Origin: Nanoarchaeota archaeon SCGC AAA011-G17
Lineage (GTDB): Archaea; Nanobdellota; Nanobdellia; SCGC-AAA011-G17
Assembly (NCBI GenBank): GCA_000402515.1
Contig: AQRL01000035.1
Location: 36,006 to 100,005, forward strand
Reading direction: 5' to 3'
Length of the DNA stretch: 64,000 bases
Shown here: piece by piece, positions 8,324 through 59,562 of the stretch
How the letters are laid out: each line of letters starts with the position of its first letter
Numbering within the stretch: the first letter of the stretch is position 1
Program-made: the position numbers and the translations under genes
The notes under the pieces: generated by a model
What the model was told of the DNA's origin: nothing
Databases searched by the model: none
Seen by the model: the letters and a program-made list of their open reading frames with translations, nothing else

Positions 8324-8359
8324 AAAAGATTACTAAGACACGCGCATATAAAAACATTT

Positions 8360-9181: not shown

Positions 9182-9182
9182 T

Positions 9183-9563: not shown

Positions 9564-9624
9564 AATTCTGATTAATAAAAAGAATAAAAAAATACAAAAG
9601 AAAAAGTCTAGTTAATCTTTATTT

Positions 9625-9867: not shown

Positions 9868-9946
9868 TTACTTTTCCTCCAATCCTTTAGGATATAATTT
9901 TTGAGAATTTTGTTCTTTTTATAGTTTTGGATTTGAAAATAGATGC

Positions 9947-11277: not shown

Positions 11278-11287
11278 TTTTACTCTT

Positions 11288-21710: not shown

Positions 21711-22115
21711 TTTTCCAATGATTGTTGTGTTAGGATGAAATTTAATATATTATTATTTTACAAAAACTTCTTCCCCTTTTTTTAGTTTTGAGGCTTCTGT
21801 ATACTGCTTTTTTCCTTTGTTATTAACTGCTATTTTGTGCTCTGGTGTAACTAACAACGTTTTCCCTGACTCTGTTGTTATTTTATATAGATAGGGTTTG
21901 TCTGATTTGTATTTATTAACTGAAAGTACTTCTACAGGCTGGATTTTCCCATTCTTTTCTGCTAATATGTATAATTCATCTTTTTTAAGATATACTGCTA
22001 TGTATCCCTTTTTCTTAATTAATTCTTTTTCGTGCTTTTTTAGTATTTTATTTACTTCTGTTGAAATATTTACTTTTTTTCCATTTTTTATGAGTTTATT
22101 GTTACCACTAAATGA
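21594..22115 (-). other. Mini-intein in LonB interrupted by tandem in-frame TAA TAA stops (N-segment 120 aa, C-segment 39 aa)
   Basis: Block A 'SFSGNNKLIKNGKKVNI' and block B 'LLVTPEHKIAV' lie in the upstream ORF. Blocks F/G '[21 protein letters not shown]|S' lie in the downstream ORF. Both are in the same frame, separated by TAATAA + 13 codons + ATG. Confidence 0.75.
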
Positions 22116-44681: not shown

Positions 44682-45313
44682 TTTATTGTATTTATTATTC
44701 CCTCCTCATGCCCTGCTCCCAATACTGCCACTACTTTTTTATTTGCTGACATCAGGGAATATAATCTTTTTGCCATGAATACATCTCTTTCTTCAACCAG
44801 TACCTTATAGATTGAAGGATATCTTTTTTTCACTATTTTCAGCAATTTATTTATAATCTTTTTTTCTGGGACTCTTGTTAAGTCTATTTTTAATTCCTCT
44901 GACGGGATTAATGATGATTTTATTATATCATATATTATTTTTATCTTTTCTTTAAATGTTAATTGCTTTTTTAATCTTTTTAATGTAATTCTTATATCCT
45001 GGTCAATTAATGCAATCTGTATTTTATTTTTTTCGGCTAATTTTACTGCTTCTTTCATTTCAGCGCCCGGTGAGACGCCTACTTTTTCACCTAATTTTTT
45101 TTCTATATATGCACCTATTAAGTTGAGCAAGTTTATATTCTTTATGTTAAATTTTTCTTTTTTGTCAAAAATCAGCTTGTTAAATCTTAAGGGGTCTAAT
45201 TCCAGGGCAATAATATCAGGAGATTCATTTTTTATGACAGAATTAACCTCGTTTATGCTTTGTTTTGCAATGTGGGATGTTCCAATAATCACCAAGTTTT
45301 TATATTTTAACAT
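44648..45313 (-). CDS. TraB/PrgY/GumN-family protein
   Basis: 'VIIGTSHIAKQS...IIALELD' N-terminal signature. Confidence 0.5.
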   Translation of the reverse strand: MLKYKNLVIIGTSHIAKQSINEVNSVIKNESPDIIALELDPLRFNKLIFDKKEKFNIKNINLLNLIGAYIEKKLGEKVGVSPGAEMKEAVKLAEKNKIQIALIDQDIRITLKRLKKQLTFKEKIKIIYDIIKSSLIPSEELKIDLTRVPEKKIINKLLKIVKKRYPSIYKVLVEERDVFMAKRLYSLMSANKKVVAVLGAGHEEGIINTIKCYSQKKKQPN

Positions 45314-45389
45314 ATATTGCAGAAGGAAAATCTTTATATATATAAAATGTATCTTAAGAGGTTAAGAGCAAGACTAAAAGGAGGCTAAA

Positions 45390-45671
45390 ATGCTAAAAAC
45401 TAAAAAAATAAGTGATTCGATTGATATGCGCGTTTTTACAGACGTGGGTGAGTATTTCGGGGATGTTGAGGAATGCATACTTACATTAAATAAGATTTCT
45501 GGATGGAGAGTTAAAGCTACTAGAACATCAACTTTGAGTAAGTTATTGGGCGGAGCAAAAGGTGTCATTGTACCTCATCAGCTTGTTAAGGCTATGGGCG
45601 ATGTAATGATAATAAGCAAGGCTGCAATACCATCTTATACGGAAGAAGAAAAACAAGACGAAACTATTTAG
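45390..45671 (+). CDS. PRC-barrel-like small protein
   Basis: 'GEYFGDVEECILTLNKISGWRV...GVIVPHQLVKAMGDVMIISKA'. Confidence 0.4.
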   Translation: MLKTKKISDSIDMRVFTDVGEYFGDVEECILTLNKISGWRVKATRTSTLSKLLGGAKGVIVPHQLVKAMGDVMIISKAAIPSYTEEEKQDETI

Positions 45672-45711: not shown

Positions 45712-46260
45712 ATGGCAGACAGTGCACTAGGGGTGACTATTGAATTTTTTAAGAGATTCGGCATCTTTGATGTAGTTCTTCCATTTTTACTTGTTTTTAC
45801 TGTTGTCTTTGCTATTTTACAGAAAAGCCAGATATTAGGCGAGAATAAGAAGAATCTGGATGCTACTGTTGCTTTTGTAGTTGCAATGCTTGTTGTTGCT
45901 GCTACCAGAATTGTTGGAGTTATAAATGAGGCCTTACCTGCAGTTGTTTTGCTTATAATTGTGTCTATGTCTTTTTTGTTGTTAGTTGGAATGTTTGTTA
46001 AACCAGGGGAGATTTTTAAGAATTTAGAGGGTCCATGGGTTAAATTTTTGATGATTTTACTTTTTATTGCAGTACTTTTAATATTCTTAGCAAATATAAG
46101 AATGGAAAATGGGGATAGCTGGCTGGAGTATACCCTGAGTTATGTTAGTGTTTATTGGAGCGGGGCAGTTGTCGGCTCTATTATTTTAGTTGTAATATTT
46201 ATAGCTGCAATTGTTTGGGTTACAATTGGTGAAAAAGATAAGAAGAAAAAGGAGGATTGA
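45712..46260 (+). CDS. Membrane protein, paralog 1 of tandem triad
   Basis: 'FDVVLPFLLVFTVVFAILQKSQILGENKKNLDATVAFVVAML', shared with the next two ORFs. 4 TM helices. Overlaps the next gene by 4 nt. Confidence 0.4.
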   Translation: MADSALGVTIEFFKRFGIFDVVLPFLLVFTVVFAILQKSQILGENKKNLDATVAFVVAMLVVAATRIVGVINEALPAVVLLIIVSMSFLLLVGMFVKPGEIFKNLEGPWVKFLMILLFIAVLLIFLANIRMENGDSWLEYTLSYVSVYWSGAVVGSIILVVIFIAAIVWVTIGEKDKKKKED

Positions 46261-46811
46261 TTATGGTTTTAGAGCAAGTTGATTTTGGCGGGATGTTTAA
46301 TTGGTTTGGAAGTATGGGGGGATTTGATGTTATTTTACCTTTCCTGTTAGTATTTACTCTTATTTTTGCTTTAATGGAGAAGGTTAAATTATTTGGGGAT
46401 AAAAAGAAAAATGTGCATGTTATAGTTGCTTTTGTTGCTGCTGCGTTTGTAGTTGCACAACCAGATATTGTTTTTTTAATCCGCGGGTTTATACCTAATG
46501 TTAGTATGTTTATTTTAATTATATTAATGGGTTTATTAGTTATGGGTATGTTTGGCTTAACTGGTGATACCAAATGGTCGTGGGGCTTTGCTGTTATTGT
46601 AGCTGTTGTGGCTATTTTGTGGAGTTTGAGCGCTGCTACTAGTGCCTATTACTGGCCATTTTATGACCTACTTACTTCGCAGGATATTGCATGGCTTATT
46701 GCAATTGGTGTTTTTATTTTAGTGATATGGCTTATTGTTAAAGAACCAGGAGATAAAAATAAACCAAATAAATTTTGGGATTGGGCTTCGGAAAAAATTC
46801 AGGGGAAATAA
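46257..46811 (+). CDS. Membrane protein, paralog 2 of tandem triad
   Basis: 'FDVILPFLLVFTLIFALMEKVKLFGDKKKNVHVIVAFVAAAF'. Confidence 0.4.
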   Translation: MIMVLEQVDFGGMFNWFGSMGGFDVILPFLLVFTLIFALMEKVKLFGDKKKNVHVIVAFVAAAFVVAQPDIVFLIRGFIPNVSMFILIILMGLLVMGMFGLTGDTKWSWGFAVIVAVVAILWSLSAATSAYYWPFYDLLTSQDIAWLIAIGVFILVIWLIVKEPGDKNKPNKFWDWASEKIQGK

Positions 46812-46814
46812 ATT

Positions 46815-47336
46815 ATGGCTAGTCTTTTAGATACGGGATTACTTGGATATGTTGCTCCAATCTTTTCTTTCTTATTGGTTTATGCTGTTATTTATGCTAT
46901 ACTCCTCAAGAGTAAAATTTTTGGAGAGAATAATTTAATAAATAGTGTAATTCCCTTGGCAGTTTCTGTTATGTTTTTATTAATGCCTGGTGCTGTTGAT
47001 TTTGTTAACTTTATAACTCCCTGGTTTGTTGTCTTGGTGATTGTTGGCTTTGCTGTTGCTCTGTTATTCTTGTTTTTGGGCGCTGAAAAAAGCACTGTTC
47101 AGGGATGGATGAGTAATCCGACTATTTACTGGACTGCATTGATTTTTGGGATGATAATTATTGTAGCTGGACTAACCCATGTCTTTGGAAATTTTTTTGG
47201 ACAGCCAGATACTGGCAGCGGTTCAATTGGTTCAGAGGTACAGTTTTCAATTTTTAATCCAAAAATTATTGCTACTATCTTTGTTTTGATAATTGCAACC
47301 TTTGCTATTAAATTTATATCAGAAGAAACCAAATAA
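46815..47336 (+). CDS. Membrane protein, paralog 3 of tandem triad
   Basis: 'VAPIFSFLLVYAVIYAILLKSKIFGENNLINSVIPLAVSVMF'. Confidence 0.4.
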   Translation: MASLLDTGLLGYVAPIFSFLLVYAVIYAILLKSKIFGENNLINSVIPLAVSVMFLLMPGAVDFVNFITPWFVVLVIVGFAVALLFLFLGAEKSTVQGWMSNPTIYWTALIFGMIIIVAGLTHVFGNFFGQPDTGSGSIGSEVQFSIFNPKIIATIFVLIIATFAIKFISEETK

Positions 47337-47975
47337 TTATTTCTTTTTCATTGCTTCAGTAATTCTTCCTAATTCCTTAACATTCATGGTTAAGGGCTCC
47401 ATTATTTTCTGGAATACCTGGTTTAGCGCTTTCATTTCTGCACTCACTCCACCTATATTTTTATTGTATTCATTTACTTTTCCAATTACTCCTACTTGTA
47501 GATTTTCAAAAGAATTTCTTAATCTTATTATTTCCTGTTTTATTGCTTCTATTTCTTCTATTGTTTTTTCTTTCCAGAGATTAATATCCCCAACATCTGC
47601 CATTAACTGATCCCATTTTTCGTTTATTATCTCTTCTGCTATCTCCTCTATTTGTTCTATATACTGTCTTTGTGATGGAATTTTTGTCGGCTCTGCATTA
47701 GGAAGCTTATACTTTTGCTGATAAGAAGATGGTTCTGCATATTCTTCAGGCTGGGTCATATAATCTTCCTGCCCTTCTTCCTGTTCTGGCTCACCTGGGC
47801 TTGGAGCCTCTAAACTAAAATCTTCAGAAGGGGGCTGTACGTTAAAATCTTCCATGCCCTGATAGATATCTTTGCTAGAATGCCCTTCTTGTTTTAAATT
47901 ACTAACTATAGATGGATCGGATATTCCTCTTGATTTCATAGTCTGTATTTTTTTCTTAATTATTTGCGGGGGCAT
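47337..47975 (-). CDS. Acidic coiled-coil protein (possible pilus/archaellum accessory)
   Basis: Glu/Pro-rich linker plus C-terminal coiled-coil. Divergent from the pilus ATPase. Confidence 0.3.
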   Translation of the reverse strand: MPPQIIKKKIQTMKSRGISDPSIVSNLKQEGHSSKDIYQGMEDFNVQPPSEDFSLEAPSPGEPEQEEGQEDYMTQPEEYAEPSSYQQKYKLPNAEPTKIPSQRQYIEQIEEIAEEIINEKWDQLMADVGDINLWKEKTIEEIEAIKQEIIRLRNSFENLQVGVIGKVNEYNKNIGGVSAEMKALNQVFQKIMEPLTMNVKELGRITEAMKKK

Positions 47976-48312
47976 TTCCTTTATCTTTTAAACTCTTATC
48001 AATTAGTAGTTTTACCTCTTTTTCTGTTGTAAAATGAAGGGGGTTCCACAGGTTAATATATCTTTCTAAAACTTTTAAGTCATCCTTTCTTGCAAAGGCC
48101 TCTACTTCTGTTATCATATGCCTAATTGTTTGTTTGACTTTTGTAAGGTCTGCTTTTATCCCTTTCATTTCATTATTGATATTTTTTAGTTGCAGGTTTA
48201 TACTTCTGTATTCTTCAATCATATTCTGGTCTGTTACAAATATTCTATCCCTAAGAATTACGACTTTATTTTCTATATCCCTTACTCTTCCAATTACATC
48301 CTCTTCAGGCAT
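47956..48312 (-). CDS. Coiled-coil protein
   Basis: 118-aa heptad-rich ORF overlapping the next gene. Confidence 0.3.
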   Translation of the reverse strand: MPEEDVIGRVRDIENKVVILRDRIFVTDQNMIEEYRSINLQLKNINNEMKGIKADLTKVKQTIRHMITEVEAFARKDDLKVLERYINLWNPLHFTTEKEVKLLIDKSLKDKGNAPANN

Positions 48313-48385
48313 TTTAAAGAATAATGTTTTCTTATATATTAATTTAATGGTTAGGTTTATATAATTCTGTTATAATTATTAATTT

Positions 48386-51300
48386 ATGGAAAAAGAGGAA
48401 ATAACTCCTGGCGGATATCAGATTATCAAACAAGGCAAAGAAGATGTTCTAAAAATAAATATGGAAAATGTGAGCTATCCTCCTTCTTTAGAAAATAGTT
48501 CCTTGTGTATGATGCAGACTATTTCCAAGCTTGCTCAGGTTCCAGGTGTTGGAAGGATTATTTTTTCTGACGGCAGAAATTATGAATATAACTATGAGCA
48601 GACACAAATACTTGTTGAGATTGCCGGAATTTATAACCATTTAATTAAACAAAAAAATACCTTAACCTTTGGGTTGGATGAAGGGGATAGCACAAGAAGA
48701 GAGATTATACAGAGCTTAATAATTAATTTATTGAGAAGTGACCCCATTGGATGTTATGTTGAATTAAAGAGGATTATCAGAGAAGAAAGAATAAGGGTGA
48801 GGGGGTTAACAAACGATACAGAGATAAGATTAACACAAATGTATGTTTCTTTATTGGATTATATTCTTGGGCTGCTTGACCGAACAAAGTTAGTACAAAG
48901 AGTCAGAGAGTCTTTAGACGGGCATATTGTTGGTGACAGGCTTGTGTATAAAAGAATTTTCAGCCCAATTATAACTCCTGACTTTATGTATACCAAATTA
49001 ATGTCCAGAATTCCTCTTAATGGCGAATTGGTGGATAGTTATAAAATTGACAGGGATACAGAGGTAAATATTTTTAGGATGCCGGGGCAAATAAAAAATC
49101 TGTATCATTTGAATCCTCCGGAATTTAAATTTGATGATGACAAGTTTGAGTTAATTCATTTAGCAAGAACTGTTTTAGCAGAGCATAAACCAAGAGAAGA
49201 GGAGTTTATTGATCCTGAAAGAATGAGAACTACTTTTTTTAATATCGGAAGGGATATGCTGCAGGAACTTGCAGACAGAAAGGGACTGAGGTTAAATTAT
49301 GCTGAGTTAAAGCAATTAACAAATGTTCTTGTCAGATATACTGTTGGATTTGGTTTGGTTGAAACTTTATTGAAAGATCAAAAAGTACAGGATATTACTA
49401 TAAATGGACCGATGGGCCAGACACCGATTTTTATAGTTCATGAGAATTTTGATGAGTGTGTTACCAATATTGTTCCATCTAGGGAGGATGCTTTAAGCTG
49501 GGCAACTAAATTCAGAATTTTAAGTGGCAGACCATTGGATGAGGCTAATCCTGTTTTGGATACTGAGCTTGTAATTCCAGAGGCAAGAGCAAGAGTTGCA
49601 ATTGTTTCTACTCCCTTAAGCCCATGGGGACTAGCTTATGCATTTAGAAGGCACAGAGACAAGCCGTGGACACTGCCTTTATTTGTTAATAACAAAATGA
49701 TTACACCTATGGCTGCAGGGCTATTGAGTTTTTTAATTGATGGTGCTAGGACATTAATTGTTGCTGGAACAAGAAGCTCGGGTAAGACTTCTTTATTGGG
49801 AGCAGGTTTGGTTGAAATTATGAGGAAATACAGAATATTAACTACTGAGGATACTTTAGAGCTGCCAACAGATGCACTTAGAAATCTTGGATATAATATA
49901 CAACCGATGAAAGTAAGAAGTGCTTTATCAAAAGGAGGAACAGAGGTTGCTGCTGATGAGGGAATCAGAACTGCATTAAGAATGGGAGATAGTGCATTAA
50001 TTGTAGGAGAAATTAGAAGTTCTATTAGAGGAAGTGAAAAAGTAGTTGTTGTAGATAATGGGGAAACAAAAAGAATTCCAATTGCAGACTTAGAAGGGAA
50101 AGATATAGAGAAAATGTATGTTCCTACTATAGATTTTGACTTACAGGTTAAATTGTCCAAGCTTAATGGGTTTGTTAAACATCCCAAAAGAAAAAAATTA
50201 TTAAAAGTCAAAACAAGAACTGGAAGAGAGGTTACTGTTACACCCGACCATAGTTTATTTACTTCTCATAATTTTAAAATATATCCAATAGAATGTAAGG
50301 ATTTGAAAGTTGGAAGTAAGATTGTTTTACCTTCTAAATTGCCTTGCGGGTATAATGATATAGGTCATTTAAATCTTTTAAATATTATTGGGGATGCTAG
50401 AGTTGAGAATTTTGAAGAACCGATTAGGCGGGTTATATCTAAAATAGGATGGAAGAAAGCCACTTCTCTTTGCAATATAAAATGTGGAGATATCTATAAT
50501 TATTATAGAGTAAATCAAAAGACCAATATCCCTATAAATTCTTTTAATAAATTAGTATCCCTTGCAGAAGAGAATAATAATCTAGAAAGTTTGTATATAA
50601 AGAATGGAACAAGTAATACTTTAAGTGCTTTATTCCCTATAAATGTAGATTTTTGTAGATTTTTAGGTTATTTTATTTCTGAAGGGTATTTCCATGATAC
50701 TTCTATTGTGATATCAAATGATAATGATAAAATAGTCTCAGATATTACTTCTTTATGTAAAACTCTCTTTAATCTTGAACCATATGTTAGAGAAACAAAA
50801 GGATTGGGGAGGTCTAAACAGATAGCGATCAGTAATTCTCCATTGGTAAAATTATTTGAAAAGATTGGATGCGGAAGAATTAGTAAAGAAAAAAGAATTC
50901 CTTCATTTATCTATGGTTTATCTGAATCTAAGATATACTCATTTTTAAGTGGATTATATGCTGGTGATGGAAGTTTCACATCATCAAAGTCTTCTGGTAA
51001 TTGTATTAGATATTTTACTATTTCAAAAGAACTTGCAGATGATTTGATGTATTTATTATTACATATAGGCATTGTTTCAAGAAAATTAATGAGGAAGAGC
51101 AATGGCTTATCAAACAATCCTATTTATATTGTTGAGTTTAAGGATAGGAATTTTGTAAGAAGATTTATAGATAATGTTGATTTTGTTAAATATAAACCAG
51201 TGATGACTGAAAAAAATGTTTCACACTCTCGTTTTAATAATGTAAGTTATGATATAAAAGAACTTGAGAACCATTTGAAATTAATTAGAAAATATAGGCA

Positions 51301-52150
51301 TTTGAGAAAATATAATTCATGCGGAAAAGAGTTTCTTAGAAAGATAGTTTTAGATAAAAATACTAATTCCGATTCTTCAATAAAAACATTTGTGAATGGT
51401 GAATTTTATTTAGACGAAGTCAAAGAAATAGAAGAAATAAATTTAGAGGAAGGAGAGTATGTTTATGATTTGTCTGTTGATCCAAGCCAGAATTTTATTG
51501 GGGGATTTGGAGGAATTTTATTACATAATACAGAAGCTTTAGCACTTTATGAGGCTATGAGAATTGGTGCATTGGCTAATGTTGTTGCCGGAACAATTCA
51601 TGGTGATAGTCCGTATGGTGTTTTTGACAGGGTTGTAAATGATTTGAAAGTTCCTAAGACTTCTTTCAAAGCCACAGATATAATTATTGTTGCTAATCCT
51701 ATAAAAAGTGCAGATGGATTACATAAATGGAGGAGGGTTACACAGATTACTGAGGTAAGAAAGAATTGGCAAGATGATCCATTAAGGGAGGGAGGATTTG
51801 TTGACTTAATGAAATATGACAGCAAAGAAGACAGATTAAAACCAACTGATGATCTGATTAATGGGAATAGCGAAATAATAAAAGGAATTGCTGCAAATGT
51901 AAAGGAGTGGGCTGGTGATTGGGATGCTGTTTGGAATAATATAGTATTAAGAGCAAAAATAAAAGAGGCTATAGTTAATTATTCAAGAGTTTTCAAAAAA
52001 CCAGAAATGTTAGAGGCTGAATTTGTTATCAAGGCTAATGATATGTTTCATATTACAAGCGGGAGTGTTCAGGAGAGAGAGGGGTGGCTGAATTCTGAAT
52101 TGATTTATACTGAATGGGAAGACTGGCTGAAAAAAGAAATTAATGGTTAG
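48386..52150 (+). CDS. Type IV pilus/archaellum-type assembly ATPase (GspE/VirB11/FlaI superfamily) containing a ~503-aa LAGLIDADG intein
   Basis: 'DITINGP', Walker A 'GTRSSGKTS', 'LIVGEIRS'|intein|'TEALALYEAMRIG', 'GTIHGDS'. About 470-aa N-terminal extension before Walker A. Confidence 0.8.
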   Translation: MEKEEITPGGYQIIKQGKEDVLKINMENVSYPPSLENSSLCMMQTISKLAQVPGVGRIIFSDGRNYEYNYEQTQILVEIAGIYNHLIKQKNTLTFGLDEGDSTRREIIQSLIINLLRSDPIGCYVELKRIIREERIRVRGLTNDTEIRLTQMYVSLLDYILGLLDRTKLVQRVRESLDGHIVGDRLVYKRIFSPIITPDFMYTKLMSRIPLNGELVDSYKIDRDTEVNIFRMPGQIKNLYHLNPPEFKFDDDKFELIHLARTVLAEHKPREEEFIDPERMRTTFFNIGRDMLQELADRKGLRLNYAELKQLTNVLVRYTVGFGLVETLLKDQKVQDITINGPMGQTPIFIVHENFDECVTNIVPSREDALSWATKFRILSGRPLDEANPVLDTELVIPEARARVAIVSTPLSPWGLAYAFRRHRDKPWTLPLFVNNKMITPMAAGLLSFLIDGARTLIVAGTRSSGKTSLLGAGLVEIMRKYRILTTEDTLELPTDALRNLGYNIQPMKVRSALSKGGTEVAADEGIRTALRMGDSALIVGEIRSSIRGSEKVVVVDNGETKRIPIADLEGKDIEKMYVPTIDFDLQVKLSKLNGFVKHPKRKKLLKVKTRTGREVTVTPDHSLFTSHNFKIYPIECKDLKVGSKIVLPSKLPCGYNDIGHLNLLNIIGDARVENFEEPIRRVISKIGWKKATSLCNIKCGDIYNYYRVNQKTNIPINSFNKLVSLAEENNNLESLYIKNGTSNTLSALFPINVDFCRFLGYFISEGYFHDTSIVISNDNDKIVSDITSLCKTLFNLEPYVRETKGLGRSKQIAISNSPLVKLFEKIGCGRISKEKRIPSFIYGLSESKIYSFLSGLYAGDGSFTSSKSSGNCIRYFTISKELADDLMYLLLHIGIVSRKLMRKSNGLSNNPIYIVEFKDRNFVRRFIDNVDFVKYKPVMTEKNVSHSRFNNVSYDIKELENHLKLIRKYRHLRKYNSCGKEFLRKIVLDKNTNSDSSIKTFVNGEFYLDEVKEIEEINLEEGEYVYDLSVDPSQNFIGGFGGILLHNTEALALYEAMRIGALANVVAGTIHGDSPYGVFDRVVNDLKVPKTSFKATDIIIVANPIKSADGLHKWRRVTQITEVRKNWQDDPLREGGFVDLMKYDSKEDRLKPTDDLINGNSEIIKGIAANVKEWAGDWDAVWNNIVLRAKIKEAIVNYSRVFKKPEMLEAEFVIKANDMFHITSGSVQEREGWLNSELIYTEWEDWLKKEING
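50021..51529 (+). other. Intein in pilus ATPase (Hint + LAGLIDADG endonuclease)
   Basis: Block A 'SIRGSEKVVVVDNGETKRIPIADL'. Block B 'VTPDHSLF'. LAGLIDADG 'FLGYFISEGY' and 'FLSGLYAGDGSF'. Blocks F/G 'YVYDLSVDPSQNFIGGFGGILLHN|T'. The N-terminal boundary is uncertain by about 4 codons. Confidence 0.75.
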
Positions 52151-52181
52151 ATTTATATAATTCTTTCTTGTAGTTTAAATA

Positions 52182-54335
52182 ATGAGTAAAAAAGAGGTAG
52201 AGGATATTCTAGAGAAATACAGGAAGAAACTAAAAGAAGAGGTTAGTCCAGATCTTAACCAGGGTGCATTTTCCAGAGAATATTCAAAATTTAAAACTGA
52301 GGTAATTGGGAAAGAACTTACATTATATGAAAAACTTTGTAATTTATCTGAGAGAATATTAAGAATAGGAACAAGTTCTGAAAAAAGACAAAAATTAGAG
52401 GAGAGCATTTATCATACTGAATTAAATATCAGCCCTGAAGGGGCTATGAGTTTTGCCACCTTATTTGGTTTTTTTCTTATTATTTTGTCCTTTGTAATTG
52501 GCGGGATATGGTATTTATTTAGTGGCTTAACTGCTGGAGTATCTTTTTCTGTTATACTAATAATTCTTATTGGACTAGTCAGTATGAGAGTTTTAGCTGA
52601 AGTTCCAAACAGAAAGGCAATGATGTGGAGGATAAAGGCCAGTGACCAGATGGTTTTGTGCATTCTGTATATTGTTATGTACATGAGACATACTTCTAAT
52701 CTAGAGCATGCTATTAAATTTGCAGCGCAGCATCTTGATGATCCATTATCTGCTGATTTGAAAAAAGTTTTCTGGAATTTGGAAACAGGGAAGGCCAAGA
52801 CGGTTAGTGAGAGCCTTGATATTTATTTAGAGGGATGGAGAAAATATAATATGGAATTTATCAATTCTGTCCATCTTATTGAGAGCTCATTATATGAGCC
52901 AACTGAGAAGAGAAGATTAGAGATTTTGGACAGAGCATTGGAGGTTATTTTAAACGGAACTTATGAAAGGATGATGAACTATGCGCATGATATAAAAAAT
53001 CCAATCACTACTTTGTATATGCTTGGTGTAATACTTCCGATACTGGCATTGATTATTCTTCCTCTGATGGGGGCATTTTTGGGAGTGAAGTGGTACTGGC
53101 TTGCATTCCTATATAATATATTACTTCCATTATTTGTTTATTTCAAGGGAAATGATATTTTGAATAAGAGACCGGGTGGAAGCAGTGAGAGTACTTTATT
53201 GCAGGGAAAGGATTATGAAGATTATAAGAGAATAGAATTTTTGGGAATACAGATGGATCCTTTAGTTCTTGGCTTGCCTATTTTATTTTTGGTTTTAATA
53301 GTTGGATTAAGCCCCTTGATATTACACTCTTTATTTCCTGCAAGCCTTTTCTTGAATGCTGAAGGTGTTTTTGGTTATTTTAGTGATAATGGGCTTTGTA
53401 CTGGAAAGAATTGTATGGGTCCTTATGGAATCTTGGCACTTTATCTGAGTTTGTTGATTCCTCTTAGCTGGACTTTGGGAATTGGATTGTATTACAGATT
53501 AAAGACGAGAAAATTAATAAAAATAAAGGATGATACTACAAGATTAGAAAAAGAATTTTCAAGCAGTTTATTCCAATTAGGAAACAGAATTGGAGATGGA
53601 TTACCGGCTGAGATTGCAGTTGAGAAAGTGGCTGAGAATATGAGGGGAACTGCAACTGGTGATTTCTTCAGGATGATTGCAATCAATATCAGAAATTTAG
53701 GGATGGATCTGAATGAGGCTATTTTTAATAAATCAAGAGGGGGAATTATTTACTATCCTTCAAATGTTATCCAGAGCTCGATGAGAGTACTTGTTCAGAG
53801 TGTTCAGAAAGGCCCTGCAATAGCTGCCAGTGCAATGATCAGCATTTCTAATTATTTGGATAATATAAATAAAATAAATGAGAGACTTAAAGATTTATTG
53901 TCTGATATTACCAGCAGTATGAAGGGGCAGATAAATTTTCTAACTCCTCTTATTGCCGGAATTGTTATTGGTATTGGGGCTATGATAACAAGCATTATTG
54001 TCAAGCTTGGTCCATTATTAGCAATGACTGGGGGAGATAAGGTTGAGGGATTTGGTGTTGACCTGAGCATTATTGCAGACATCTTTCCGCTTGACAAGGT
54101 AATTCCCCCATATTTCTTCCAGTTGGTTGTTGGGATTTATATTTTACAACTTGTTATTATTTTAACTAAACTAAAAAGTGGGATTGAATTTGGTGTTGAC
54201 AGATTAAGAGAGGAGAATGAAATGGGTGGAAATTTATTTAAGGGAGTGGGGCTTTATGTTATTGTATGCATAGTTGTTGTATTCATATTAACTATGCTAT
54301 CGGAAGGAGTAATGTTAACAACAGGTGGACTATGA
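52182..54335 (+). CDS. Polytopic membrane platform protein (FlaJ/TadC/GspF-like)
   Basis: 717 aa. Two blocks of TM helices separated by cytoplasmic domains. Immediately downstream of the ATPase. Confidence 0.6.
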   Translation: MSKKEVEDILEKYRKKLKEEVSPDLNQGAFSREYSKFKTEVIGKELTLYEKLCNLSERILRIGTSSEKRQKLEESIYHTELNISPEGAMSFATLFGFFLIILSFVIGGIWYLFSGLTAGVSFSVILIILIGLVSMRVLAEVPNRKAMMWRIKASDQMVLCILYIVMYMRHTSNLEHAIKFAAQHLDDPLSADLKKVFWNLETGKAKTVSESLDIYLEGWRKYNMEFINSVHLIESSLYEPTEKRRLEILDRALEVILNGTYERMMNYAHDIKNPITTLYMLGVILPILALIILPLMGAFLGVKWYWLAFLYNILLPLFVYFKGNDILNKRPGGSSESTLLQGKDYEDYKRIEFLGIQMDPLVLGLPILFLVLIVGLSPLILHSLFPASLFLNAEGVFGYFSDNGLCTGKNCMGPYGILALYLSLLIPLSWTLGIGLYYRLKTRKLIKIKDDTTRLEKEFSSSLFQLGNRIGDGLPAEIAVEKVAENMRGTATGDFFRMIAINIRNLGMDLNEAIFNKSRGGIIYYPSNVIQSSMRVLVQSVQKGPAIAASAMISISNYLDNINKINERLKDLLSDITSSMKGQINFLTPLIAGIVIGIGAMITSIIVKLGPLLAMTGGDKVEGFGVDLSIIADIFPLDKVIPPYFFQLVVGIYILQLVIILTKLKSGIEFGVDRLREENEMGGNLFKGVGLYVIVCIVVVFILTMLSEGVMLTTGGL

Positions 54336-54439
54336 ACAAAAAAGGTATTGCTGATAAAACTATGATTGTAATTGGTATTTTAATACTCGCTGTTATTTTG
54401 ATTTTAATCTTGAGGGGGATTATTAACAATGTATTCTAA
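54332..54439 (+). CDS. 35-aa prepilin-like micro-protein (class III signal peptide + TM only)
   Basis: 'MNKKGIADKTMIVIGILILAVILILILRG'. ATG overlaps the TGA of the previous gene (ATGA). Confidence 0.4.
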   Translation: MNKKGIADKTMIVIGILILAVILILILRGIINNVF

Positions 54440-55187
54440 AAAAGGAATCGCTAAGCTTACAGTTTTTCTTATTGTTGGTTTACTAGGAGCGATTGCTCTT
54501 TTTTCTGTTTGGGGAGGTATTTTTCCAGCTTCTAGAGATATTGTTATGCATAAGGTGTGCACTTGGAGTATAAACTTTAAAGACAAGCTCATTATAGGAA
54601 CTAATTTGTGTTATACTGATGACAAGGAAGTAAGTGAAAAAGATAAGGAAGCTGTAATGAAAGATATTGCAGACAAGATGGTTGAATGCTGGAAGAGAAT
54701 GGATGAGGGAAGAACTCCAATTGATACAAATTGGTTTGTTGGGGGATATAAATGCTTTAAGTGTTATAGAATAAAAATTACAGGACTAAAAGATAAAATT
54801 AGTTATGAAGATTTTTTTAAATTTTTAACTGAAAATCCTATTAAGGGAAAGGAAGAAAGCTATAATACTTTCTTTAAGAAATATGATGAGGATAATGCGA
54901 TTGTTCTTCTTGGAAAAAGTGGCACTATTAAAGAGGCGTTTATTGATCCAAAACAATATGAATATTATACTGTGGCTTTTAAGGGCTATACTCCTGCTGG
55001 GAAGGGAAGTGTTGCTGCTACAGCATATAGCTCTGTAAAATTAGCCCCATTTACTGGAGGATGGTCTCTTCTAGCAGGTGCCACAGCCCTGACTACTGGA
55101 GGTGTTCGTTACTGGATTAGTGAAAACTCAATAATTGTTGCATCTTATGATAAATTGGAGGAAGAGTGTTCATCAACTTTAAGATGA
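54429..55187 (+). CDS. Prepilin-like protein (class III signal peptide)
   Basis: 'MYSKKG|IAKLTVFLIVGLLGAIALFSVW' followed by a 220-aa domain. Confidence 0.55.
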   Translation: MYSKKGIAKLTVFLIVGLLGAIALFSVWGGIFPASRDIVMHKVCTWSINFKDKLIIGTNLCYTDDKEVSEKDKEAVMKDIADKMVECWKRMDEGRTPIDTNWFVGGYKCFKCYRIKITGLKDKISYEDFFKFLTENPIKGKEESYNTFFKKYDEDNAIVLLGKSGTIKEAFIDPKQYEYYTVAFKGYTPAGKGSVAATAYSSVKLAPFTGGWSLLAGATALTTGGVRYWISENSIIVASYDKLEEECSSTLR

Positions 55188-55327
55188 AAAAGGGACAGAC
55201 AGTTATGGATACAACAAGAGAGTTAATTTGGGTATTATTAATACTGCTCGCTTTGGTTTTTTTTGTTTATTTTTTGAAGGATAAAATAACTCATTTCTTT
55301 GAGGTGATGTTTGATGCTCTCAAATAG
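55184..55327 (+). CDS. 47-aa prepilin-like micro-protein
   Basis: 'MKKGQTVMDTTRELIWVLLILLALVFFVYFL'. ATGA overlap with the upstream gene. Confidence 0.4.
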   Translation: MKKGQTVMDTTRELIWVLLILLALVFFVYFLKDKITHFFEVMFDALK

Positions 55328-55985
55328 GAAGGGGAATGAAGGAATGTGGTGGACAATTGCTGGTGCAGGGATTGCACTCATTATTTTAATTATCTTAATT
55401 TTTGCTTTTCTTTCTGAAGGAGGTATTTGGGGAAAAACAAAAGTAGCTATTACTAAATTTTTTGAAAAGGGTGAAGAGGGGATTAAGCTATATAAGGAAT
55501 ATTTTGGAGATAATCCCAGCAAACAGGTAATAAAGGCAGGGCTAATAAAAGATTTTATTATAACTAATCTTAGCCGGATTGAGAATAAGGACTGCATAGG
55601 TTATCTTGATTTGTCTGGCATAAATGAAGATATTGATGGCTATTCTGTTTATTTTAAGAAAACAGATGAGGGAACTGATTTTTATGTGTATAGTGGGGGG
55701 AAGAAAGATTATGGTGAGATATTAAAAGACCATCTTGCTTATGGTCATGTCAGTACTAATCTATTTGGGTATAATCCTGTCTTTAAAGAAGAATATAGTG
55801 AATTTTGGCTTCTTAATGGGATGACAAGTATCATTTTTCCAGTTGGTGTAAGCTATCCACTTTTATATTCCTCTTCAAAAGCTAATAATCCTTATTACTT
55901 AAATTACAAAGACAAGAGATTGCGTTTTGTTGTATTACCTGATGAACTTTCCAAAATAAATAATCCAAGTATAAATAAATGTTAG
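55314..55985 (+). CDS. Prepilin-like protein
   Basis: 'MLSNRKGNEGMWWTIAGAGIALIILIILIFAFL'. Confidence 0.5.
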   Translation: MLSNRKGNEGMWWTIAGAGIALIILIILIFAFLSEGGIWGKTKVAITKFFEKGEEGIKLYKEYFGDNPSKQVIKAGLIKDFIITNLSRIENKDCIGYLDLSGINEDIDGYSVYFKKTDEGTDFYVYSGGKKDYGEILKDHLAYGHVSTNLFGYNPVFKEEYSEFWLLNGMTSIIFPVGVSYPLLYSSSKANNPYYLNYKDKRLRFVVLPDELSKINNPSINKC

Positions 55986-56044
55986 ACGAAACATTTAAAT
56001 AGAAAATAAAAGAATTTATATATAAGTATATATTGAGAGGTGTT

Positions 56045-56497
56045 ATGAAAATGAATAAAAGAGGTCAAGGTGGACTTTCTATGGATACTATTATTATAGC
56101 TGTAATTGCTATAATTGTTTTGTTATTGATTGTTACTTTCTTTACAGGCGGAATGGCTAATGTTTTCGGCAAGATAAGGAATGTATTCTCGACTGGGACA
56201 GCAGGAACAGATATTGATCTTGCAAAGAAAAGCTGTGAAAGTTATTGTGAAAGAGCACAGGGATTAGCAACAGAAGGTGAAAGAAAGGTATCAACTTATT
56301 GCACTTATGAATTTAAAATAGATACAGATAGTAGTGGGAAAGTTGATAAGGCTGATGGGGATGGATGTACTAAAAATAGAAGAGATAGTAATGGTAATTC
56401 TGTAACTGCAAAATCTGATTGTTCTGTTGGGGTTGTTTATTGTGATAAATCTCCAATTGTAATCAGTTGTCCAGGAGTAACTTGTGCTACAGTTTAG
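56045..56497 (+). CDS. Cys-rich prepilin-like protein (candidate major pilin)
   Basis: 'MKMNKRGQGGLSMDTIIIAVIAIIVLLLIVTFF', then a 110-aa domain with 12 Cys. Confidence 0.55.
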   Translation: MKMNKRGQGGLSMDTIIIAVIAIIVLLLIVTFFTGGMANVFGKIRNVFSTGTAGTDIDLAKKSCESYCERAQGLATEGERKVSTYCTYEFKIDTDSSGKVDKADGDGCTKNRRDSNGNSVTAKSDCSVGVVYCDKSPIVISCPGVTCATV

Positions 56498-56520
56498 TAA
56501 TTTTTTTTCTTTTTATTAAA

Positions 56521-56748
56521 ATGAACAAAAAAGGGGATTTGAACTGGGAAGTAATTGTTACTGGTATTATAGTTGTAATTGTTTTGGTTGTTCTTGTAAT
56601 ATTTTTCAGACAGCAGATAATGGATGTTGCTAAGGGTTTTAAAAGTATTGTTGAAGGGGGAACAGCTGGTGTTGATGAGATAGATGTCAATAAAATGGCT
56701 GGAGAGGGAAGCAAGACATTTAGCAGAAATTTTATATATACCTCCTGA
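56521..56748 (+). CDS. Prepilin-like protein (75 aa)
   Basis: 'MNKKGDLNWEVIVTGIIVVIVLVVLVIFF'. Confidence 0.5.
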   Translation: MNKKGDLNWEVIVTGIIVVIVLVVLVIFFRQQIMDVAKGFKSIVEGGTAGVDEIDVNKMAGEGSKTFSRNFIYTS

Positions 56749-56760
56749 TTAGCTATTGTT

Positions 56761-57321
56761 ATGTTAAATAAAAAAGGGGATGAAACAGTATGGCAATATA
56801 CCATTGGCTTATTTATTATGTTTTTTGTTCTTTTTGGTTTGACCAGCTGTGGTTATAAAATACTCAATCCTAATTGCGATCCTGCTTCTGTTGAGGCTTT
56901 TAATGAATTTGTTAAATATTATGAAGAATGTACCGGCAAGAATGGAGACTGTGGGAAGTTTAATTATTCCAAGTTGGACAAGCTGGATAATATAGTTGTT
57001 GAGCCAACAGGCAATAAATTAGAGAGTACAAGCATTAATCTGAGATGCAATGGAAAAACTTCATTCAGAAACAGCAGAAAAATTGATGTTAAATTATGCT
57101 TTAAATACGGAGAAAATGTCAGATTAGCAAATAGCGGTGATTCTGTGAATATTTATCCTGATGAAGGGAATGATCTTGAATATTTTTTAAATAATAATTT
57201 GAACTTATACAACATAAATCAGGATAATGTTTGTTTTGTTATGATTGGGAAAACTATGGAAGAATATACTAAGGAAGAAGCAAGAAAACAATTTATGGAT
57301 AAAGATTATATGTCTAAGTAA
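56761..57321 (+). CDS. Prepilin-like protein with Cys-containing domain
   Basis: 'MLNKKGDETVWQYTIGLFIMFFVLFGL'. Confidence 0.5.
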   Translation: MLNKKGDETVWQYTIGLFIMFFVLFGLTSCGYKILNPNCDPASVEAFNEFVKYYEECTGKNGDCGKFNYSKLDKLDNIVVEPTGNKLESTSINLRCNGKTSFRNSRKIDVKLCFKYGENVRLANSGDSVNIYPDEGNDLEYFLNNNLNLYNINQDNVCFVMIGKTMEEYTKEEARKQFMDKDYMSK

Positions 57322-57326
57322 GTGGA

Positions 57327-57713
57327 TTGATTAAAATGAATAAAAAAGGCCAGGATTTACCGACTGTAACAACTGTTGAACTTTTTATTTTATTATTAAT
57401 ATTTGGAATGCTTGCTTATGTAACTTTTAATGCAAATATCAGCAATGATGTCAATAATATAAGGGCAAAGGATTTGGGATTGGCAATAAGCCTAATCAGC
57501 TCTTTTGACAAGAATGTTAAATTCAGCTATAATCTTGAGGATGAAAAAAAAATTAATTTTATAGATAATAATGTTGAAATTTCCAATAAAGACGGAAGCC
57601 ATTTTGAGAAAAGCAAATTTAATCTTAATAAAAAAAATACATTTAACGGGAAAGACGGCAATTATCAATCATTAAGCATAAAAAAATCAGGAGATAGTGT
57701 TGAGGCAAAATGA
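57327..57713 (+). CDS. Prepilin-like protein
   Basis: 'MIKMNKKGQDLPTVTTVELFILLLIFGML'. Confidence 0.5.
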   Translation: MIKMNKKGQDLPTVTTVELFILLLIFGMLAYVTFNANISNDVNNIRAKDLGLAISLISSFDKNVKFSYNLEDEKKINFIDNNVEISNKDGSHFEKSKFNLNKKNTFNGKDGNYQSLSIKKSGDSVEAK

Positions 57714-58117
57714 ATAAAAAAGGCGGGGGAGAGATATTATCAGGAAAAACAGGGTATTATATTGTTTATATTTTTATTTTTGCAATAAGCATTGCTATTG
57801 CTGCAGCTTATATTAATAATAAAGTTACAGTGAATGTTGATTTTTCTGTACTGGAAAGGGATGTTGTCAGCAGCATGGTTTTTGACTGTTTGAAGGGCAG
57901 TGAATTTGGAATTATTGATTATAACAAATTCAAGAGTGAAAATCTGAAAGAGTGCTTTGATGAAAATACATATTATGTCAAGGTCAAATTGAGAGAGAGC
58001 GGAGAGATAAGGAATTTTGATTTCAGCAGTGATAATCGTGTTGAATATTATGTTCTTGTTGACAAGGGAGAATTACAAAGAGATTTTTTATCTCTGGAGT
58101 TTGAAAATGTTGCCTGA
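57710..58117 (+). CDS. Prepilin-like protein
   Basis: 'MNKKGGGEILSGKTGYYIVYIFIFAISIAIAAAY'. ATGA overlap. Confidence 0.5.
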   Translation: MNKKGGGEILSGKTGYYIVYIFIFAISIAIAAAYINNKVTVNVDFSVLERDVVSSMVFDCLKGSEFGIIDYNKFKSENLKECFDENTYYVKVKLRESGEIRNFDFSSDNRVEYYVLVDKGELQRDFLSLEFENVA

Positions 58118-58586
58118 TGATGTTAGTGATTTGATTATTGCAATGATTCTTCTAGTCTTGCTTGCTTCTGTTGTCTGGGCTTTGCAGAGCCCCATTGGAA
58201 AAACCCTTGCTGGTGAGGGATTAAACAGAGAGGCTAAAATAACTGCAGATATCCACAATTACAATTTTGAGGAGAATATATTTTTAGTTAATTATCTAAG
58301 GACACCAATTGCCAAACTTACAGTGGCTGATTATATTTTGATGTGCGATAATGAAGAGAAATTTGGGAATTTAAAAAAAGAGACAGACAAGATTTTGAGA
58401 GAGTATGGTAAGAAAATAAATATTATTGTCAGCTGCAAGGATGAGAAAAAGATTGTTGCTGGATATTTGATTGATGAAAGTGAAAGCAGGACTGGCTTAT
58501 TTTTTAATGGTGAGAAGGGGGTTGAGATTAATTTCAGCCCAGAATTCAAACAAAATTATTATTATGGATTACCCTATGTACACTAA
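58107..58586 (+). CDS. Pilin-like/membrane-anchored protein
   Basis: 'MLPDDVSDLIIAMILLVLLASVVWAL'. It overlaps the stop of the previous gene. Confidence 0.4.
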   Translation: MLPDDVSDLIIAMILLVLLASVVWALQSPIGKTLAGEGLNREAKITADIHNYNFEENIFLVNYLRTPIAKLTVADYILMCDNEEKFGNLKKETDKILREYGKKINIIVSCKDEKKIVAGYLIDESESRTGLFFNGEKGVEINFSPEFKQNYYYGLPYVH

Positions 58587-58587
58587 A

Positions 58588-59562
58588 ATGAACAAGAAGG
58601 GAATGGTATTTGCAACATTCACAGTAATGATTGTATTCCTCTTTATCATAAGCAACATTATCTACAAGATGCATACAGAGAATAAGAGCAAACTAAAAGA
58701 TGTCGGCTTGGGAACTGTAGACTTGATTAGGCAGAGAAGTGATTTTGAATTTGACAATCTGATTAGTGAGAAAGAGGTTGAGCTTAAAGTAAATAATGCA
58801 CTTGTAAAATTTGCTAATGGCGAGGGGAAGAATTATCTTAATGATAACAAATTTAATGAGATGTTTTTTCAGTATCTGAAGAAAGACAGCAATTTCATAT
58901 ATGATTATGATTTTAATTTAATTGGAAATATAATTGAATTCAGTGTTAAAGAAACAGCTGCAGGAGAGATGATTAAAAAAACAAGCATTGGAAAGACTGA
59001 GGAGTGCAAAAAAAAAGTGGTTGAATTGGCTGAAAAGCAGCTTGGTTGCAAATATGTATTGGGTGCGAAGGGACCGTGCGGGAGTGCATTTGACTGTTCC
59101 GGACTTATTAAGTGGGTTTATATTAATGCAGGTGTTGGTGTAAATTATTTCCCAGATGGAAGCTGGATACAGGCTGATTGGGGAAGGAGAAGCAATCTTG
59201 AGGTCAGCAATGATATTGGAAAAGATGCTAAATTAGAGGTTGATAAATTAGAGCCAGGAGATATTGTTTTTTTTAAGGGTAGCCTGCCTACTGATGGTTA
59301 TGGGGCTGAAGAACTGGATATAAGGCATGTTGGAATTTATATTGGTGATGGAAAGATTATTGAAGCAGCTGGAAAGGATTCTGGGGTTATTGAGTCTGAT
59401 ATCAGCAATAAAAGGAATTATAGGGGGGCTATAAGGGTCTGCTCTGAAAACTTTGTGGAAAATGAAGGTGTTTTTAGCTTGGATTCTAAATACGAATATA
59501 AAATTGAGCTGAATAAGAGGGATTTTATCACTCCAGACGGCATTAAGAGCATTAATATTTGA
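58588..59562 (+). CDS. Prepilin-like N-terminus fused to NlpC/P60 cysteine peptidase (cell-wall hydrolase) domain
   Basis: 'MNKKGMVFATFTVMIVFLFIISNIIY'. C-terminal 'GAKGPCGSAFDCSGLIKWVY' (catalytic Cys), 'PGDIVFFKG', 'RHVGIYIGDGKIIEA' (catalytic His). Confidence 0.65.
   Translation: MNKKGMVFATFTVMIVFLFIISNIIYKMHTENKSKLKDVGLGTVDLIRQRSDFEFDNLISEKEVELKVNNALVKFANGEGKNYLNDNKFNEMFFQYLKKDSNFIYDYDFNLIGNIIEFSVKETAAGEMIKKTSIGKTEECKKKVVELAEKQLGCKYVLGAKGPCGSAFDCSGLIKWVYINAGVGVNYFPDGSWIQADWGRRSNLEVSNDIGKDAKLEVDKLEPGDIVFFKGSLPTDGYGAEELDIRHVGIYIGDGKIIEAAGKDSGVIESDISNKRNYRGAIRVCSENFVENEGVFSLDSKYEYKIELNKRDFITPDGIKSINI

Follow-up and report, generated by a model that had tools for sequence, protein, structure and literature searches.

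The type IV pili and related type IV filaments of archaea (Aap, Ups, Epd and the DPANN 'system 1' and '4A'; PMC4858521; Sivabalasarma & Albers 2026 preprint) have in common an ATPase of the FlaI/TadA type, a polytopic platform protein and several proteins with short class III signals (K/R-G/A). The 2026 preprint, which classifies the archaeal type IV filaments, names DPANN members of systems 1 and 4A (10.64898/2026.04.22.720090), and type IV pili loci of DPANN in which many pilins cannot be recognised have been reported previously (Makarova, Wolf & Koonin 2019, PMC6393860, Fig. 2A). A large comparison of Woesearchaeota makes no mention of pili, archaella or secretion (PMC8421398), and in a groundwater study, where pili were used to assign ultra-small cells to the CPR (candidate phyla radiation) bacteria, DPANN genomes were said to lack type IV pili components (10.1101/2020.05.14.094862). 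Here we analyze a gene cluster in a 64-kb stretch of DNA (hereafter, the window) from Nanoarchaeota archaeon SCGC AAA011-G17 (contig AQRL01000035.1, positions 36,006 to 100,005). An initial annotation of this DNA had proposed a type IV pilus-like locus, and the present analysis bears this out with minor corrections: the locus, which combines genes for an assembly ATPase and a platform-like protein with a series of genes for proteins with predicted class III signals, is a conserved type IV pilus operon of Woesearchaeota.

The window is archaeal and AT-rich (~31% GC), and also encodes Orc1/Cdc6, both subunits of PolD (DP1 and DP2), Hef, LonB and RPA; no tRNA genes and no Rfam families were found across it. 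The pilus-type operon proper occupies positions 48386-59562 of the plus strand. The interval proposed at the outset, 47337-59562, contains the operon but begins too early, given that 47337-48312 holds two minus-strand coiled-coil genes and the operon starts at 48386. The operon consists of the ATPase gene with an intein, the gene for a 717-amino acid (aa) membrane protein and 11 small genes in tandem, P1 to P11, the last of which ends at 59562 (in the N-terminal sequences below, a slash marks the predicted cleavage position):

48386-52150, plus strand: assembly ATPase of the GspE/FlaI/TadA (T2SSE) superfamily, 1254 aa as the precursor and 751 aa when spliced
50021-51529, plus strand: intein of 503 aa with a LAGLIDADG homing endonuclease, residues 546-1048 of the ATPase
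52182-54335, plus strand: platform-like polytopic membrane protein, 717 aa, ~8 transmembrane (TM) segments, of a family specific to Woesearchaeota/Nanoarchaeota
54332-54439, plus strand: P1, micro-pilin-like, 35 aa, MNKKG/IADKTMIVIG...; start overlaps the stop of the platform gene (ATGA)
54429-55187, plus strand: P2, pilin-like, 252 aa, MYSKKG/IAKLTV...
55184-55327, plus strand: P3, micro-pilin-like, 47 aa, MKKG/QTVMD...YFLKDK...; start overlaps the stop of P2 (ATGA)
55314-55985, plus strand: P4, N-terminally anchored, 223 aa, MLSNRKG/NEG...; class III status uncertain
56051-56497, plus strand: P5, major-pilin candidate, 148 aa, MNKRG/QGGLSMDTIIIAVIAIIVLLLIVTFFTGG...; six invariant Cys in a variable head
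56521-56748, plus strand: P6, short pilin-like, 75 aa, MNKKG/DLNWEVIVTG...; N-terminal pattern like that of P5
56761-57321, plus strand: P7, pilin-like, 186 aa, MLNKKG/DETVW...; Cys residues directly past the helix
57336-57713, plus strand: P8, pilin-like, 125 aa, MNKKG/QDLPTVTTVELFILL...
57710-58117, plus strand: P9, pilin-like, 135 aa, MNKKG/GGEILSGKTGYYIVY...; start overlaps the stop of P8 (ATGA)
58107-58586, plus strand: P10, N-terminally anchored accessory protein, 159 aa, MLPDDVSDLIIAMILL... (MLPDDVSD...); no class III box
58588-59562, plus strand: P11, modular pilin-like, 324 aa, MNKKG/MVFATF...; N-terminal moiety of ~135 aa and a C-terminal NlpC/P60 domain

Public gene calls for a contig part of which is identical to the window (GCA_000380905.1, AQYW01000081.1) agree with this layout from the platform gene to P10, with products of 717, 35, 252, 47, 223, 148, 75, 186, 125, 135 and 159 aa; P11 falls past the end of the public locus record used for this comparison. 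The platform gene begins 31 nucleotides (nt) downstream of the ATPase gene, and sizeable gaps inside the operon occur only around P5 (65 nt upstream and 23 nt downstream). The many ATGA overlaps seen in the initial annotation amount to three, the other three overlaps being 11-14 nt long. Both micro-proteins that had been singled out for their size, P1 and P3, are encoded by real genes, which are matched by the public calls and have counterparts elsewhere: P1 is present as a gene in the public record and, of 48 loci, at least 17 have an equivalent open reading frame (ORF) of <=45 aa immediately downstream of the platform gene; counterparts of P3, 48-51 aa long and with a YFLRDK motif, recur in other loci including that of AR20.

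The ATPase belongs to the T2SSE superfamily but to no named family. The precursor matches the Intein_splicing (E=1e-22), LAGLIDADG_3 (E=3e-19) and T2SSE models, and the 751-aa extein, that is, the product after removal of residues 546-1048, matches Pfam T2SSE with E=2e-14 (53.3 bits, cut-off 24.9), which confirms that the operon encodes an intein-bearing ATPase of the FlaI/PilB type, as proposed. The best relatives of the extein among solved structures are afGspE (2oap, 2e-26), CpaF (2e-22) and FlaI (7e-16). The protein has a family-specific N-terminal region of ~290 aa and falls far under every cut-off of the NCBIfam FlaI, TadA and BasE models; the gene was found in 49 of 49 related loci, with a median identity of 61%. 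An archaellum (motility) operon with unusual archaellins would be compatible with FlaI being the best NCBIfam match of the ATPase by E-value (1e-37) and appearing among its solved relatives. However, the score against the FlaI equivalog model is 130 bits versus a cut-off of 550, afGspE and CpaF outscore FlaI in the PDB search, and no ORF of the locus matches FlaH, FlaF, FlaG, FlaC/D/E or an archaellin family; these seven components are common to all archaella according to Makarova et al. 2016 (PMC4858521). The initial annotation had already argued from the missing FlaH/FlaG/FlaF set that this is not an archaellum, and we reject that explanation as extremely unlikely.

The intein is inserted within the conserved IVGEIRS/TEA segment of the ATPase and has the residues of class 1 inteins: Ser546 (Ser1), His-Asn at 1047-1048 and Thr1049 at +1. 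Its boundaries are fixed by an intein-free orthologue from another locus, L002, a 74%-identical relative that is exactly 751 aa long and in which the junction, IVGEIRSTEASALYEAM, is the predicted splice product (IVGEIRSTEA). The ATPase ORF is longer by at least about one intein in 7 of 53 related loci, as judged by length and not by insertion site; six of these ORFs encode 1259-1278 aa and one encodes 1786 aa. The latter homologue (L017:1180-6540) extends ~500 aa beyond the single-intein alleles and may therefore carry two inteins.

The 717-aa platform protein belongs to a family with more than 2600 homologues of ~700 aa and ~50% identity. None of the 120 homologues listed has a Pfam domain on record, and most of those with a name are 'hypothetical'; two are called TadB by the Joint Genome Institute. 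A profile built from 36 homologues found no platform protein among solved structures. The AlphaFold2 model from the same number of homologues (pLDDT 79.5, pTM 0.75) gave, in a Foldseek search, matches with a probability of 0.97-0.99 for EpsF/OutF domains only (target TM-score 0.67-0.75). The model thus supports the presence of a cytoplasmic helical-bundle domain of the GspF/PilC type, with one such domain located. The description of this protein as FlaJ/TadC-like in the initial annotation therefore holds at the level of the fold, for one domain, but not at that of sequence families.

In 10 of the 11 small proteins (P1-P9 and P11), the N-terminus conforms to M-x(0-3)-K/R-K/R-G followed by a hydrophobic helix; the initial annotation had counted at least 11 tandem prepilins that all carry the box, and the 11 genes are there but P10 is without it. 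Across 80 loci of species-representative genomes, the operon strand has 0.70 class-III-like N-termini per kb, compared to 0.014 per kb in control sequence, a 50-fold enrichment that upholds the proposed signal architecture. The consensus over the loci is M-N-K-[KR]-G, with a leader of 4-7 residues, Gly mostly at position 5, and K at -3 in 209 of 227 class-III-like N-termini. When Gly is not presupposed, the residue after the last basic one is G (207) or A (55) in 262 of 428 operon N-termini (61%), against 8 of 75 (2 G and 6 A; 11%) among the control N-termini. Under the archaeal class III rule, position -1 is limited to G/A, with K/R at -2 (PMC4858521). Because the box has exactly these residues, 'MNKKG' conforms, at the sequence level, to the canonical class III (prepilin) motif of archaea; it is not the new variant that had been suggested. 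An acidic residue within +1 to +10 of the Gly is frequent (8 of the 10 proteins here and 165 of 227 N-termini across the loci), but the earlier placement of this residue 3-8 positions after the KKG does not hold, as there is no fixed position.

Among the small proteins, P5 is the one most often detectable elsewhere, with BLAST matches in 33 of 38 loci, most of the others being too diverged. Its first ~70 aa are nearly invariant in 42 homologues, and the Cys-rich C-terminal head varies. A search of 1.84 billion representatives with a P5 profile retrieved 858 clusters (E<=1e-3); the best 150 matches listed are 87-225 aa long and mostly align from within the first few residues. At position -1, the representatives of the family have G (113), A (16) or S (10), and at +1 Gln is found in 72 of 139; K/R-G/A/S followed by Gln is the euryarchaeal pilin pattern. 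P5 homologues also appear to have a transcription unit of their own: a TATA-like box lies upstream of 19 of 28, compared to 39 of 196 other pilin-like genes (p ~1e-6), and an oligo-T run lies downstream of 32%, compared to 3.6% (p ~1e-5). In the window, the respective signals are TTTATATATAA upstream (TATA-like) and T8CT5 downstream. The AlphaFold2 model of P5 (pLDDT 76.6) consists of a 39-residue helix (11-49), a second helix (55-70) and four short strands that form a small sheet; compared with solved structures, it matched no solved pilin. Taken together, these features make P5 the apparent best candidate for the major pilin.

P6 was found in 17 of 38 loci and shows a sub-threshold match to Flp1_like (E=6e-4, 19.7 bits, cut-off 33.5), and its orthologue in L002 likewise matches this model weakly; for P3 the match is weaker still and below threshold (E=0.054, 13.4 bits). 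P2, without a family match, is BLAST-detectable in 9 of 38 loci and P9 is found in 8 of 38, whereas P7 has no family match and is not detectable by BLAST in other loci. P8 has counterparts in L001 and L002. The orthologues of P10 in the same two loci lack the box as well, and counterparts of P4 in several loci have an acidic MxDEE..GIG N-terminus with no K/R-G box.

The last gene of the operon has a feature that is absent from the initial annotation. The C-terminal part of P11 matches NLPC_P60 (PF00877) with E=5e-14 (52.6 bits, cut-off 23); its catalytic Cys (DCSGL) and His (HVGIY) align to those of the solved NlpC/P60 enzymes 6bim and 8v3w, and the third position of the triad is Glu rather than His. 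By the family model and both catalytic residues, this domain is predicted to be an NlpC/P60 peptidoglycan endopeptidase. In at least 30 other loci, the final pilin-like gene encodes a homologue of the N-terminal 135 aa of P11; these products usually comprise 235-295 aa and start with MNKKG or MNKKA. With its class III box, conserved N-terminal moiety, grafted module and location in a pilus operon, P11 thus looks like a modular pilin. Only 8 full-length homologues, all close clusters, were found; further matches cover the NlpC/P60 domain alone and, where named, are wall hydrolases of the bacterial type, such as CwlO-like DL-endopeptidases, which suggests that the module was captured from bacteria.

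Hydrolase modules of other kinds are present in some of the other loci, behind MxKRG/MKKG N-termini. The conserved terminal gene of one locus encodes an Amidase_2 domain (L028:20223-21776), and pilin-like genes in mid-operon positions encode SLT+M23 (L080:15180-17225), SLT (L078:10357-11949 and L034:6686-8389), SLT+Amidase_2 (L013:14602-16239) or M23 (L075:14357-15475). The modules occur in a minority of loci, yet they are recurrent and come from unrelated catalytic families. In some loci, two Peptidase_M15 (D-Ala-D-Ala dipeptidase) matches and one D-Ala-D-Ala ligase match were also seen downstream of the platform gene; these may lie outside the operons and were not counted as evidence. Peptidoglycan hydrolases have been found to be unusually frequent in Nanoarchaeota (PMC12352652), and SLT proteins mark small-genome Woesearchaeota and Pacearchaeota, which has been taken as a hint of bacterial hosts (PMC8204110, PMC9723730). 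The papers that report murein hydrolases in these archaea (PMC8204110, PMC9723730, PMC12352652) draw no link to pili or class III signals.

The combination of one conserved subunit with many low-abundance 'minor' ones, some of which bear hydrolases, is also reminiscent of the type II secretion system (T2SS) and of Com, and the locus encodes one ATPase with no retraction ATPase. Hence the product could be a short pseudopilus, a T2SS- or competence-like piston that exports, for example, hydrolases through the S-layer or imports DNA and macromolecules from lysed neighbours; the organisms in question have reduced genomes and have been proposed to live by scavenging nucleotides and cellular material (PMC8204110). 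However, neither a secretin nor ComEC/ComEA nor substrate genes were seen in the locus, the hydrolases themselves bear the pilin-type signal and so would be subunits rather than cargo, and a long filament accords better with P5, which has the appearance of a bulk subunit expressed strongly and on its own. We regard the pseudopilus as unlikely, and the filament remains our preferred interpretation.

The platform family is present in at least 578 species-representative genomes of Woesearchaeota/Nanoarchaeota, including AR20. The 80 loci kept are labelled Woesearchaeota, Nanoarchaeota, Nanoarchaeia or unclassified archaeon, with the exception of one metagenome-assembled genome (MAG) labelled 'bacterium' (L038), and include the complete genomes CP066683.1 and AR20 (CP010426.1); the same gene order is found in a 736-kb complete genome. 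Seven of the loci (L003, L005, L012, L036, L054, L063 and L068) come from NC_groundwater_*_Ag_* MAGs, that is, from the same aquifer data set as the groundwater study mentioned above (bioRxiv 10.1101/2020.05.14.094862). Gene order is fixed over ~15 kb, from the M50-like, TraB and PRC-like genes through three genes for 5-TM proteins and two divergent coiled-coil genes to the ATPase, platform and pilin-like genes and, finally, RPA. The genes upstream of the operon are the following:

43938-45671: M50-like 6-TM protein, TraB/PrgY/GumN-family protein and 93-aa PRC-barrel-like protein, kept with the locus in 42-45 of 49 species
45712-47336, plus strand: three tandem paralogous 5-TM proteins of 182, 184 and 173 aa, just upstream of the pilus genes
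47337-47975 and 47956-48312, minus strand: two overlapping coiled-coil proteins of 212 and 118 aa, divergent from the ATPase gene

The 5-TM triplet is present in 47-48 of 49 species loci and the coiled-coil pair, with a fixed offset, in 48 of 49; no family match was found for either. The first 5-TM paralogue (TM_a) has a conserved FGxFDxxLPF...LEKT motif with one conserved Asp. The M50-like protein scores below the family threshold, and its HExxH and LDG motifs look degenerate by eye. The coiled-coil proteins could serve the machine as partners in the cytoplasm or as regulators, or be mere syntenic neighbours.

Several observations weigh against the pilus interpretation. The platform protein has no Pfam or NCBIfam match at E<=0.1, including to T2SSF, and no PDB sequence match, and an hhalign comparison of its N- and C-terminal halves, at low alignment diversity, detected no repeat of the T2SSF type (probability 0.1%). 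Profile searches of the small proteins against Pfam and NCBIfam returned no pilin, archaellin or DUF361-type match, only the sub-threshold ones to Flp1_like. The hydrophobic stretch starts 1-10 residues past the Gly, and not directly after it, in roughly half of the N-termini. P3, P1 or P6 may be the major subunit instead of P5, in which case the subunits would be Flp-like mini-pilins. The NlpC/P60 fusion, rejected as a general feature of the family, is found in 0 of 38 other loci and belongs to a narrow clade of 8 clusters; more generally, hydrolase modules are confined to a minority of loci and are therefore not a core feature. The conserved block includes housekeeping genes (RPA, TraB); accordingly, synteny alone is no proof of functional linkage, and we do not claim the upstream genes for the machine. 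To our knowledge, no filament has been seen on any Woesearchaeon. Lastly, as the initial annotation had stated, the window has no recognizable prepilin peptidase: Peptidase_A24 (PibD/FlaK/EppA) was not found among its plausible multi-TM ORFs scanned (>=3 predicted TM segments). The candidates considered for this role were rejected, namely the TctA, MFS and YdjM proteins, which were identified as members of those families, the M50-like protein, because of its sub-threshold score and degenerate-looking metal-binding motifs, and the 5-TM paralogues, which have the single conserved Asp and no GxGD motif. The literature searched contained nothing relevant on a woesearchaeal prepilin peptidase or on pili with NlpC.

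Missing peptidase and pilin matches would be expected if the K/R-G boxes stayed uncleaved and the small proteins were anchored surface proteins or bindosome-like assemblies beside a secretion ATPase, with no filament formed. P10 and the P4 orthologues are indeed anchored without a box, and substrate-binding proteins that form no filaments are known to bear class III signals in archaea (bioRxiv 10.64898/2026.04.22.720090). Nevertheless, the conservation of the box far exceeds what a positive-inside anchor needs (K at -3 in 209/227; G/A in 61% vs 11%), the conserved helix and variable head of P5 are the pattern of polymerising pilins, and in every locus the small genes are closely linked to those for the ATPase and the platform. 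On balance, we find this explanation very improbable; signal cleavage and filament formation presumably take place at this locus.

The reading that we favour as a whole, and consider likely, is a type IV filament operon typical of Woesearchaeota that would work as follows. Splicing of the intein out of the precursor would yield the 751-aa FlaI/TadA-type ATPase, presumably a hexamer, which would dock onto the cytoplasmic GspF/PilC-like domain of the 717-aa platform. The class III signal would direct ten of the small proteins into the membrane, and a prepilin peptidase whose gene lies in another part of the genome would cut them after the Gly of M-N-K-K/R-G. ATP-driven motion of the platform would then lift the mature subunits from the membrane, with their hydrophobic N-terminal helices packing into a filament. 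P5, made from its own promoter and terminator within the operon, would be the bulk subunit, and P1/P3, P6 and the fast-evolving P2, P7, P8, P9 and P11 would be low-abundance subunits that prime or cap the filament. P11, probably located at the tip, would display the NlpC/P60 domain on the filament and, upon contact with bacteria, cut the stem peptides of peptidoglycan locally, which would aid attachment, penetration or the harvest of cell-wall material. Host attachment or uptake, the role put forward in the initial annotation, is a putative function of the filament. We know of no peptidoglycan synthesis in Woesearchaeota. Far more tentatively, and with considerable doubt, one may conjecture that woesearchaeal pili are cross-domain wall-opening filaments, the conserved capping minor pilins of which repeatedly captured bacterial hydrolases in many lineages (NlpC/P60 here; SLT, M23 or Amidase_2 elsewhere) and which bind and perforate a bacterial host or prey.

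Inteins and related elements also occur in the window outside the operon. The LonB gene consists of two ORFs (20355-22730, minus strand) and is interrupted at an intein: the first ORF (21753-22730) stops inside the N-terminal part of the intein (Intein_splicing positions 10-94), and the second (20355-21710), after a 42-nt gap, encodes the remaining AAA+ and Lon_C domains, such that this intein is either broken or split. The large subunit of PolD, DP2 (26357-31330, plus strand, 1657 aa), has an intein with a LAGLIDADG domain at residues ~955-1405, which brings the intein-bearing genes in the 64 kb to three: the pilus ATPase, LonB and DP2. Two free-standing LAGLIDADG_3 ORFs (53-1192 and 33375-34691, both on the minus strand), one of which also has a helix-turn-helix domain, may be homing-endonuclease-derived genes or regulators. 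Elsewhere, a mobile-element-like cluster (7187-11764, minus strand) encodes a DUF559 endonuclease-like protein, a tyrosine recombinase (Phage_integrase), a serine recombinase (Resolvase+Recombinase) and small unknown ORFs.

Woesearchaeota are among the most widespread uncultured archaea. A complete ATPase-platform-pilin operon is present in at least 578 species genomes, some of which are MAGs of the very aquifer data set whose authors had described DPANN genomes as lacking type IV pilus components. Routine annotation misses the operon, as the ATPase is the sole part of the machine with a match to a Pfam model. Hydrolase modules on pilin-type N-termini lead to a concrete hypothesis of contact with bacteria and connect a particular surface apparatus with the murein hydrolases that scattered earlier studies had reported from these archaea. 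If the above conjecture of wall-opening filaments is correct, bacteria would be indicated as the partners, sought for a long time, of at least a part of the very abundant Woesearchaeota, and the pili would represent a pilus-delivered enzyme weapon, undescribed for archaea in the literature searched. The locus provides a marker family for the annotation of DPANN pili, P5, as the candidate major pilin, is a target for antibodies, proteomics and cryo-electron microscopy, and the ATPase is available as an intein-bearing allele.

Compared with the archaeal type IV filament systems outlined at the beginning, the locus shares the fast-evolving pilins and the absence of archaellum accessory genes. It differs in that the platform is a single 717-aa protein that the T2SSF, TadC and FlaJ sequence models do not recognize, the 751-aa ATPase has a family-specific N-terminal region and lies under every curated cut-off, and the pilins fall into no described pilin family; moreover, its accessories, namely the 35- and 47-aa micro-pilins, P10, the upstream 5-TM triplet and the coiled-coil pair, set it apart. 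The bacterial Tad/Flp pili resemble it in the CpaF/TadA-like relatives of the ATPase and in the very short pilin-like proteins P1, P3 and P6. Unlike those systems, the ATPase scores 120.8 bits against the TadA model TIGR03819 (cut-off 373), one large platform takes the place of the TadB+TadC pair, and the locus is without a secretin, the TadZ/TadD/TadG set and the G/xxxxEY Flp motif, the Flp1_like matches being sub-threshold.

The closest parallel for P11 is found in Streptococcus sanguinis, where the modular pilins PilB (vWA) and PilC (lectin) cap the filament and present effectors (PMC9934059). P11 likewise combines a predicted class III signal, a short pilin-like moiety and a C-terminal domain, and its gene stands among those for minor pilins within a pilus operon. 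In contrast to those adhesin modules, the module of P11, as well as its relatives with SLT, M23 and Amidase_2 domains, is predicted to be a peptidoglycan-cutting enzyme, and in an archaeon, with a putative position at the tip. The large SLT proteins of Woesearchaeota/Pacearchaeota (Rinke 2013 and Castelle 2015, via PMC8204110; PMC9723730) are comparable as bacterial-type wall hydrolases in DPANN that have been read as an anti-wall tool. As described in these papers, which make no mention of pili, those proteins are free-standing and up to 3000 aa long, whereas the hydrolase domains here reside on pilin-type N-termini in a pilus operon and come from several unrelated families.

The nearest precedent for the locus as a whole is provided by the DPANN pilus islands (PMC6393860), in which a secretion ATPase and a TadC-like gene are followed by unannotatable small signal-peptide proteins that were read as diverged pilins. 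Given this precedent and the presence of the locus in at least 578 species genomes, the original assessment as 'not a described system' was overstated: the kind of system is known, and it is the family, its breadth and the hydrolase-bearing subunits that are not described in the literature searched. The earlier islands were presented as a general example, with no analysis of the present family. To that example, the present analysis adds that the family extends over at least 578 species with a fixed synteny, and it contributes statistics on the signal motif, structural evidence on the fold of the platform, a major-pilin candidate and the hydrolase modules.

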